NCBI RefSeq assembly: GCF_003018235.1
Contig: NZ_CP027437.1
Strand: one strand, 5' to 3'
DNA: 64,000 nt
Origin: Escherichia coli
Lineage (GTDB): Bacteria; Pseudomonadota; Gammaproteobacteria; Enterobacterales; Enterobacteriaceae
The position numbers and the translations under genes were made by a program. Of the stretch, positions 14,088 to 14,402 are shown piece after piece (position 1 is the first letter of the stretch; the number at the start of each line of letters is the position of its first letter). The notes beneath the pieces were generated by a model that was not told the DNA's origin, did not search any database, and saw only the letters and a program-made list of their open reading frames with translations.

Positions 14088-14380
14088 CGATATTGAGTTA
14101 TATTGCAAATTATGAAATGATTATCCCGATCATGTGTGTCAGTGCACCAAAAAAAACTCATATGCAAAAGCCCGATAAGACCCCTCTGACCTTATCGGGC
14201 TTTTTTATCTGTCGGCAAAGACATCGAACAAAAATTAATCACAATCATCATCTTTTTTTCATCAATGCGATTAAAAACAATAAATTACGCTCATGATGAT
14301 GATGACGATAAAACCACAAAAATGCGCTTTTTTCCGCGCCACCCGTCCCGTGGATGGTCCCGCCAGCCAGGAGGACCCAT

Positions 14381-14402
14381 AAAAAAGCCGGATTGCTCCG
14401 GC
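14381..14402 (-). terminator. intrinsic terminator after the replication operon
   Basis: Minus strand gccggagcaatccggc hairpin plus tttttt; nearly identical to the 11942-11964 terminator. Confidence 0.5.

Follow-up and report, generated by a model that had tools for sequence, protein, structure and literature searches.

The segment at 14372-14402 of the window, which is the 64,000-nt stretch of Escherichia coli contig NZ_CP027437.1 analysed here, is well supported as the junction between the terminator of a replication/PerC operon and a phage-derived cos cassette. By homology the cassette belongs to the cos lineage of the Stx2/VT1-Sakai phages, cdtI, Tritos and mEp460, and not to the lambda/21/phi80 family. 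On balance the copy in the window would be a vestigial, decaying spare cos.

The cassette was located in an island of about 11 kb (window 10.1-21.5 kb) that has phoQ on one side and roxA on the other. An integrase, a RepA-type helicase, SSB, a PerC-family regulator and a capsid operon were encoded on its minus strand, the operon consisting of genes for a 68-aa protein (p68), a lambda-E-type major capsid protein (MCP), a D-type decoration protein and a 137-aa protein. The island was syntenic with annotated islands and with EcCICFT073, the prototype Gram-negative cos PICI, which occupies the same locus in CFT073, and it could be assigned to the EcCICFT073-like PICIs from its integrase, replication genes, c1499/c1500-type capsid and decoration genes, cos, att repeats and size of about 11 kb. 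A 75-nt direct repeat with 76% identity (10106-10180 and 21480-21554), adjoining phoQ and the integrase gene, flanked the island and presumably represents attL and attR. Two Rfam matches above the gathering score were observed, C4 antisense RNA (18345-18432, minus strand, 78 bits) and isrK (18457-18533, minus strand, 63 bits); both lay inside a 504-aa ORF (18099-19613), which may therefore be over-called. When genome contigs were searched with the capsid protein for related loci, 21 pattern hits were obtained and 0 were confirmed.

PICIs of the EcCICFT073 family spread by hijacking lambda-type terminase, for which they use Rpp and a pair of cos sites of the lambda type. EcCICFT073 itself has two cos sites, both complete and both with a cosN, GGGCGGCGACCT, identical to that of lambda, phi80 and phage 4 (PMC6092414, PMC6739421); cos1 has a PICI-specific cosB (R3-PICI, ACCACCACC at bp 55-63) that is read by Rpp-TerS (Fillol-Salom et al. 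2018, PMC6092414; 2019, PMC6739421). The corresponding features in the window were as follows.

11933..11963, minus strand: partner copy of the repeat, composed of terminator hairpin GCCGGAGAAATCCGGC, T6 and cosQ (11933-11939), from fold and repeat match.
11750..11909, minus strand: partner cos, composed of the exact lambda cosN (11898-11909) and a cosB in which the CATGTCCGG element occurs three times.
11243..11284, plus strand: another complete cos of the lambda type (cosQ 11243-11249, exact lambda cosN 11273-11284), in the opposite orientation to the other two sites.

The two inverted lambda-type sites were about 600 bp apart and differed in cosB, one having GGTGGTTGTTG/ACAACAACC repeats and the other the three CATGTCCGG elements at 11760-11870. 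The partner cosB was similar to EcCICFT073 cos2 and to R sites of the 21 type in CFT073 prophage 4, and the pairing of cosB with each cosQ-cosN was different from that of the two published cos sites of EcCICFT073. The gene between the two inverted sites was rpp (redirecting phage packaging; 11505-11710, minus strand), which was 5'-truncated with about the C-terminal 60 codons left, by comparison with the Rpp of a related island, which has 146 aa and matches PDB 6hlk (E 2e-31). Its DNA-binding half was replaced by the CATGTCCGG cosB, and viral contig L041 was arranged alike. The 97-aa and 137-aa ORFs adjoining the cos sites were considered as Rpp and rejected, with no PDB match for either.

A repeat-family search and pairwise alignment in the 64-kb window gave 29 of 31 identical positions, without gaps, between 11933-11963 and 14372-14402, and such a pair is expected about 2e-6 times by chance in 64 kb. 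This bore out the preliminary description, in which the terminator and flank at 14369-14402 had been called a near copy of 11930-11964. Both copies were read on the minus strand as stem-loop, TTTTTTA, one variable base and GGGTCCT. The 16-nt stem-loop was GCCGGAG(A/C)AATCCGGC (15/16 identical), TTTTTTA was identical at 7/7 positions, the next base was C or T, and GGGTCCT was again identical at 7/7. Since the common segment extended 9 nt beyond the T-tract and terminated on the cosQ heptamer, the sharing was not limited to the hairpin. The heptamer matched lambda 48473-48479 exactly, which we take to be the cosQ mapped by Wieczorek & Feiss (2001), and all three copies of it in the window sat in cos-like contexts within the island.

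The statement that no cosN follows at this position was wrong, for a cosN-like 12-mer, GGACGGGTGGCG, was present at 14337-14348 at the canonical distance of 23 nt. The idea of a relic of a third cos site was right insofar as a cos-homologous cassette of about 170 bp was found, but this is not a decayed copy of the 11930 cos; beyond the heptamer the two had 48% identity in the part from cosQ to cosN (Q-N part), and their cosB regions were unrelated. Recent internal duplication of the 11930 cos was ruled out, with the loop base of the hairpin fixed family-wide (GAAA ahead of 26 sites of the lambda type, GCAA ahead of 45 of type B, defined below) and divergence setting in immediately past the heptamer. 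The family-wide comparison makes the two hairpins ancient paralogues. The cos unit does not include the terminator, because in EcCICFT073 the same hairpin follows PerC with no cassette behind it. A stand-alone packaging-termination signal, which had also been proposed, was unsupported, since the context is a full cos instead of an isolated cosQ, and termination of the lambda kind needs cosQ together with a nickable cosN (PMC4669245).

The replication-side operon and the cassette behind it contained the following features.

14693-15103, minus strand: SSB gene, upstream of the PerC gene.
14410..14682, minus strand: gene of a PerC-family activator (Pfam PF06069, 1.1e-37), the last of the replication-side operon.
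14387..14402, minus strand: terminator stem-loop GCCGGAGCAATCCGGC (hairpin 1).
14381..14386, minus strand: T6 tract of the terminator and left limit of the phage cos homology, the phage match beginning at 14385.
14372..14378, minus strand: cosQ heptamer GGGTCCT, exact and identical to that of lambda.
14349..14371, minus strand: 23-nt cosQ-cosN spacer, of lambda length (22-24 nt in type-B phages).
14337..14348, minus strand: cosN-equivalent 12-mer GGACGGGTGGCG with flanks ACG/CGG, from the match to an Stx2-type phage and lambda.
14217..14336, minus strand: cosB-like region of about 120 bp, homologous to the Rz-terS intergenic region of Stx2/VT1-Sakai phages.
14293-14309, minus strand: R3-like element ATCGTCATCATCATCAT, within the cosB-like region and before an A/T-rich stretch.
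14237-14252, minus strand: inverted partner of the R3-like element (inverted repeat, 13 nt, 85% complementary).
14166..14204, minus strand: second hairpin (hairpin 2; -23 kcal/mol, fold z-score -4.9), the cassette boundary on the capsid-operon side.

Both terminator stem-loops folded, with centroid energies of -16.4 kcal/mol for the copy at 11933 and -14.5 kcal/mol for that at 14387-14402. Hairpin 1 was predicted to be a Rho-independent terminator, having six G-C-rich pairs, extendable to nine, followed by T6. The hairpins started 7-9 nt past stop codons, the 137-aa gene ending at 11970 and PerC at 14410 (7 nt). Neither hairpin was listed by a simple consensus terminator scan, so folding was relied on. 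An Rfam search gave no match at the cassette, and an STnc50-like hit at 13986-14066 was sub-threshold.

The window 12-mer GGACGGGTGGCG agreed at 10/12 positions with the cosN equivalent of Stx2-type phages, GGGCGGGCGGCG, and at 6/12 with lambda cosN GGGCGGCGACCT. Its left half, GGACGG, was 5/6 identical to the conserved GGGCGG, and the CG bases flanking the nick were present. Past the 12-mer the order was CGCGGAAAAAAGCGC, the R3-like ATCGTCATCATCATCAT, the A/T-rich stretch and the inverted partner. The Stx2-type phage has the identical R3-like 17-mer, equally far from CGCGG. The cosB was of the phage type (CATCATCAT), without ACCACCACC. Replication-origin iterons were considered for the triplet repeats (CATCATCAT) and rejected on account of the homology to phage cosB. 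In the capsid-operon leader a hairpin with a T-run (14037-14056, minus strand) could be an attenuator or an antitermination target; it falls between a possible promoter (TTGCAC-16-TATAAT, 14060-14087) and the RBS of the 68-aa gene.

Nine Stx2-converting/VT1-Sakai phage records matched about 14217-14386 with 81% identity over 170 nt (E 1e-35). In the annotated phage example the match was placed between the Rz-like endopeptidase gene and terS; in lambdoid phages cos lies between the lysis (Rz) genes and terS. The phage homology stopped at GTCTTT, past which the island continued with hairpin 2 and the capsid-operon leader. Scanning for the terminator-cosQ junction gave 61 viral contigs in two classes, type A of the lambda type and type B reading GGGTCCTCC...CACGGGGCGGGAG(CGT)CGCGGAAAAAGG... 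Type-B sites of PICIs matched phages cdtI, Tritos, HannyBb and mEp460, and for related PICI cassettes the identity to mEp460 and HannyBb cos was 88-93%. The records of cdtI and Tritos both started at GGGCGGGAGCGT, and that of cdtI closed on GGGTCCT and a further 22 nt, corresponding exactly to the lambda ends; these record boundaries would be physical DNA ends, a point for which no paper was found in the literature searched.

In the type-B phages TerL was of the gpA family, while TerS was a DUF1441 protein and not Nu1, and cosN departed from that of lambda at positions 7-12 only. Among lambda-like phages this half of cosN, the right one, is variable, and TerL accepts its changes; selection acts on cosQ and on the left half but not on the right, and the 7-bp cosQ is highly conserved (PMC4669245). 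A broader scan yielded 194 sites, including 97 in phage context (terS just downstream) and 60 in PICI context. The distance from cosQ to CGCGG was 34 nt in 88 of the 97 phage sites and 33 nt in two of them, and three subtypes of phage sites could be distinguished, ...GGGCGGGAGCG(T/G), ...GGGCGGGCGG and ...GGGCGGGTCGG. Intermediate forms connected the type-B sites to lambda cos. Judged from position, homology and record ends, the type-B phage sites appear to be a real cos family.

The slot behind hairpin 1 was variable. In a scan anchored on the hairpin (loop GCAA), at least 128 sites were found where hairpin 1 ended the replication-side operon, with or without a cassette behind it. Sixty islands with the same capsid module, among the matches listed, were surveyed for the content of the slot, these loci being related and not independent samples.

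39/60 islands among the matches listed: slot empty, hairpin 1 leading straight into hairpin 2 (EcCICFT073 included).
18/60 islands among the matches listed: cassette with intact cosQ.
3/60 islands among the matches listed: cassette with point-mutated cosQ.

At least 11 upstream cassettes in islands with another capsid module, a ClpP-protease/capsid fusion, read AGGTACT in place of GGGTCCT. Because two of the three retrieval patterns required GGGTCCT, conservation of cosQ was judged from the hairpin-anchored scan alone. At least four cosB types occupied the slot, each near a phage counterpart (88-93% identity). Some slot copies were 100% identical to phage Q-N segments, and 26 of 49 had cosN cores absent from the 97 phage-context sites, most of them varying in the length of the G run. 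About 940 of 5,426 complete E. coli genomes had a homologue of the 97-nt core.

Other arrangements were also observed in these islands. In the ClpP-protease/capsid-fusion islands (L009, L010, L021, L029 etc.) two direct type-B cos sites flanked the module, about 2.5 kb apart, while in L028, L032 and L045 SSB, a single cos and the 97-aa gene directly adjoined one another; this would be consistent with gain or loss of the capsid module from cos to cos as a cassette. L036 (about 9250-9480), L037 and L048 carried a hybrid cos, composed of lambda/cos1-type cosQ and spacer, type-I cosN GGGCGGGAGCGG and a 21-like CATGTCCGG cosB, and the upstream site in the L036-type island had the same cosN class with an mEp460-type cosB, which suggests that cosN may become uniform within one island and cosB more diverse. 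Where islands had two direct sites, these usually agreed in cosN class and differed in cosB (SCU-111, L036), a combination that looks selected. In the island of E. coli Nissle 1917 (L182 7124-7666) the cassette occurred together with a gene for a Nu1-family small terminase at the position of rpp in EcCICFT073. The proposed Rpp-binding R3-PICI (ACCACCACC; EcCICFT073 cos1, L175 2529-2660) resembled the R3-like CACCATCACCACCAC of DUF1441-TerS phage cosB (L004/L068 type-B sites) and lay at a similar distance from cosN, a possible hint at the origin of the PICI-specific cosB.

The window cassette was a mosaic, its Q-N part being nearest to the SCU-111 island (82%) and its cosB to the L001/Nissle type (89%). 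It was the most divergent of the 49 copies, with 84% identity of the Q-N part to the nearest phage cos versus a median of 96%, and with 83% identity of the cosB-like part to the best phage cosB. It alone among the 194 sites read GGGACGG for the near-invariant GGGGCGG (G-to-A at cosN position 3), and it alone among the 60 PICI-context sites had a cosQ-to-CGCGG distance of 33 nt, with the distance from cosQ to cosB 1-2 nt short. No phage record was more than 81% identical to the cassette over about 170 nt, and no allele more than 88.8% identical was present in the 5,426 complete E. coli genomes. Exact searches with the window spacer allele GGGTCCTCCTGGCTGGCGGG gave 0 matches in viral contigs and four in metagenome contigs, all chance matches in unrelated high-GC contigs. 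Nucleotide diversity among 18 islands was 0.083 in the cosB-like part, 0.079 in the promoter/leader region and 0.16 in the spacer, and third-codon-position diversity in the adjacent genes of these islands was 0.126 (MCP) and 0.21 (p68). A functional cos would be expected to show just this, low diversity in cosB and a spacer that varies as neutral sites do, which points to some constraint. Other G-to-A changes near the nick (CACGAGGCGG) were carried by a few phage-context sites, so a single change in the left half need not be lethal.

From these comparisons, the slot behind the replication-side terminator may hold an optional extra packaging site in EcCICFT073-like PICIs. Intact cassettes probably work as cos, and they would enable helper phages with DUF1441-TerS to target the island directly by means of the phage TerS and independently of Rpp. 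The window copy would retain the architecture of cosQ and cosB and no longer work as cos; this vestigial state was favoured because of the change in the left half, the shortened spacing, the absence of a matching phage and a slot that has often decayed or been lost in relatives. A clearly less probable alternative is that it is a working alternative cos, at which a helper with DUF1441-TerS and gpA-TerL binds the cosB-like repeats and nicks 14337-14348, so that concatemers are packaged from there to the next copy and the helper range is widened independently of Rpp. The exact cosQ, the 23-nt spacer, the retained CG bases at the nick and the R3-like element identical to that of the Stx2-type phage would fit such a site, as would a cosB diversity (0.083) below that of synonymous sites, the tolerance of TerL for right-half changes of cosN (PMC4669245), the complete match of some slot copies to phage sites and the two-site islands with one cosN class and differing cosB. 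In addition rpp lacks its DNA-binding half here, so mimicry of a phage-type cosB would be the sole route to specific packaging. Against this stand the G3A change in the conserved left half, unique among the 194 sites, the shortest cosQ-to-cosB distance among PICI-context sites, the lowest phage-cos match of the 49 slot copies with no matching prophage cos in 5,426 genomes, and a slot that is empty in 39/60 islands among the matches listed, including the transfer-proficient EcCICFT073. Equally tentative is a general form of this idea, in which a swappable slot is loaded with a near-exact cos of DUF1441-TerS phages and gives Rpp-independent packaging by a second helper class, the window copy being live though diverged and its helper unsampled.

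It is improbable that the cassette acts uncut, either as a TerS-binding decoy or other interference, or by cosQ-dependent stalling or premature termination of terminase that comes from the lambda-type cos lying 2.4 kb downstream. The cassette is indeed in direct orientation with the cos at 11939, and lambda-like termination needs cosQ and cosN but no cognate cosB, with right-half changes tolerated by TerL (PMC4669245). However, a cut here after lambda-type initiation would harm the island, since mismatched cohesive ends would leave DNA that could not be cyclised; moreover nothing was found for cosQ acting alone, and the frequent loss or mutation of the cassette argues against an important role. 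Still less probable is a regulatory function on the capsid operon, in which PerC or some other regulator would bind the cassette or the cassette would insulate transcription, with the cos likeness being historical. The position between two terminator-like hairpins, directly past perC and upstream of the capsid-operon leader, and a cosB-like diversity similar to that of the leader would agree with it, but 39/60 islands among the matches listed have the same capsid operon and hairpins, and often PerC, without the cassette, and the candidate promoter and leader hairpin are downstream of hairpin 2, outside the cassette. Both of these roles were little supported, because the slot was empty in most relatives and the candidate promoter lay outside the cassette. 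That no cos relationship exists, and two similar terminators merely happen to precede the same heptamer, has a practically negligible probability: GGGTCCT is no more frequent in the window than by chance (3 observed, 3.55 expected), but this view was refuted by the 170 nt of phage cos homology at E 1e-35, by cosN-like and cosB-like elements at canonical distances and by the intermediates leading to lambda cos.

Compared with EcCICFT073 cos1 and cos2, the window site belongs to the same island family at the same place next to phoQ, and in both cases cos directly follows a near-identical terminator hairpin and more than one cos with differing cosB is present per island. Unlike them, it has another cosN class and a phage-type cosB, and it sits between the replication module and the capsid module, where EcCICFT073 has nothing. 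Since its cosN is not of the lambda type and no R3-PICI element is present, it is outside the class of PICI cos1/cos2. No third cos of another lineage was found described in the EcCICFT073 papers (PMC6092414, PMC6739421) or the literature searched.

Relative to cdtI, Tritos, HannyBb, mEp460 and the Stx2-type phages, cosQ, spacer, cosN and cosB were homologous and in the same order and spacing, with the Q-N part of the window copy 76-84% identical and differing by G3A and a length 1-2 nt shorter. Phage cos, however, is between lysis genes and terS, whereas the window site is between hairpins, upstream of a capsid operon without terminase genes. With lambda cos it shares the 7-bp cosQ, the 23-nt spacing, the ACG/CG nick flanks and a G-rich left half of cosN (PMC4669245, PMC9026076), as well as inverted R-type elements around an A/T-rich stretch; it differs in cosN (6/12), in an unrelated cosB and in the cognate TerS, which would be DUF1441 here and is Nu1 in lambda. 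The staphylococcal satellites SaPIbov5 and SaPIbov4 likewise carry the cos of their helper phage, and two putative cos sites were reported in SaPIbov4 (PMC6092414); this is a likeness of strategy alone, taken from the literature, with sequences, hosts and terminases unrelated.

The reason why islands of the EcCICFT073 family have more than a single cos is treated as an open question in PMC6739421. The swappable slot, if true, would partly answer why several different cos sites are carried. The third cos is phage-identical in some islands and drifted, cosQ-mutated or deleted in others, which suggests that cos sites may be exchangeable cassettes that track the available helpers and decay when unused. 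For the window copy the practical consequence would be small, as this copy is probably inactive. For the family, such exchange, if true, would bear on predicting which prophages, Stx-converting ones included, mobilise which islands.
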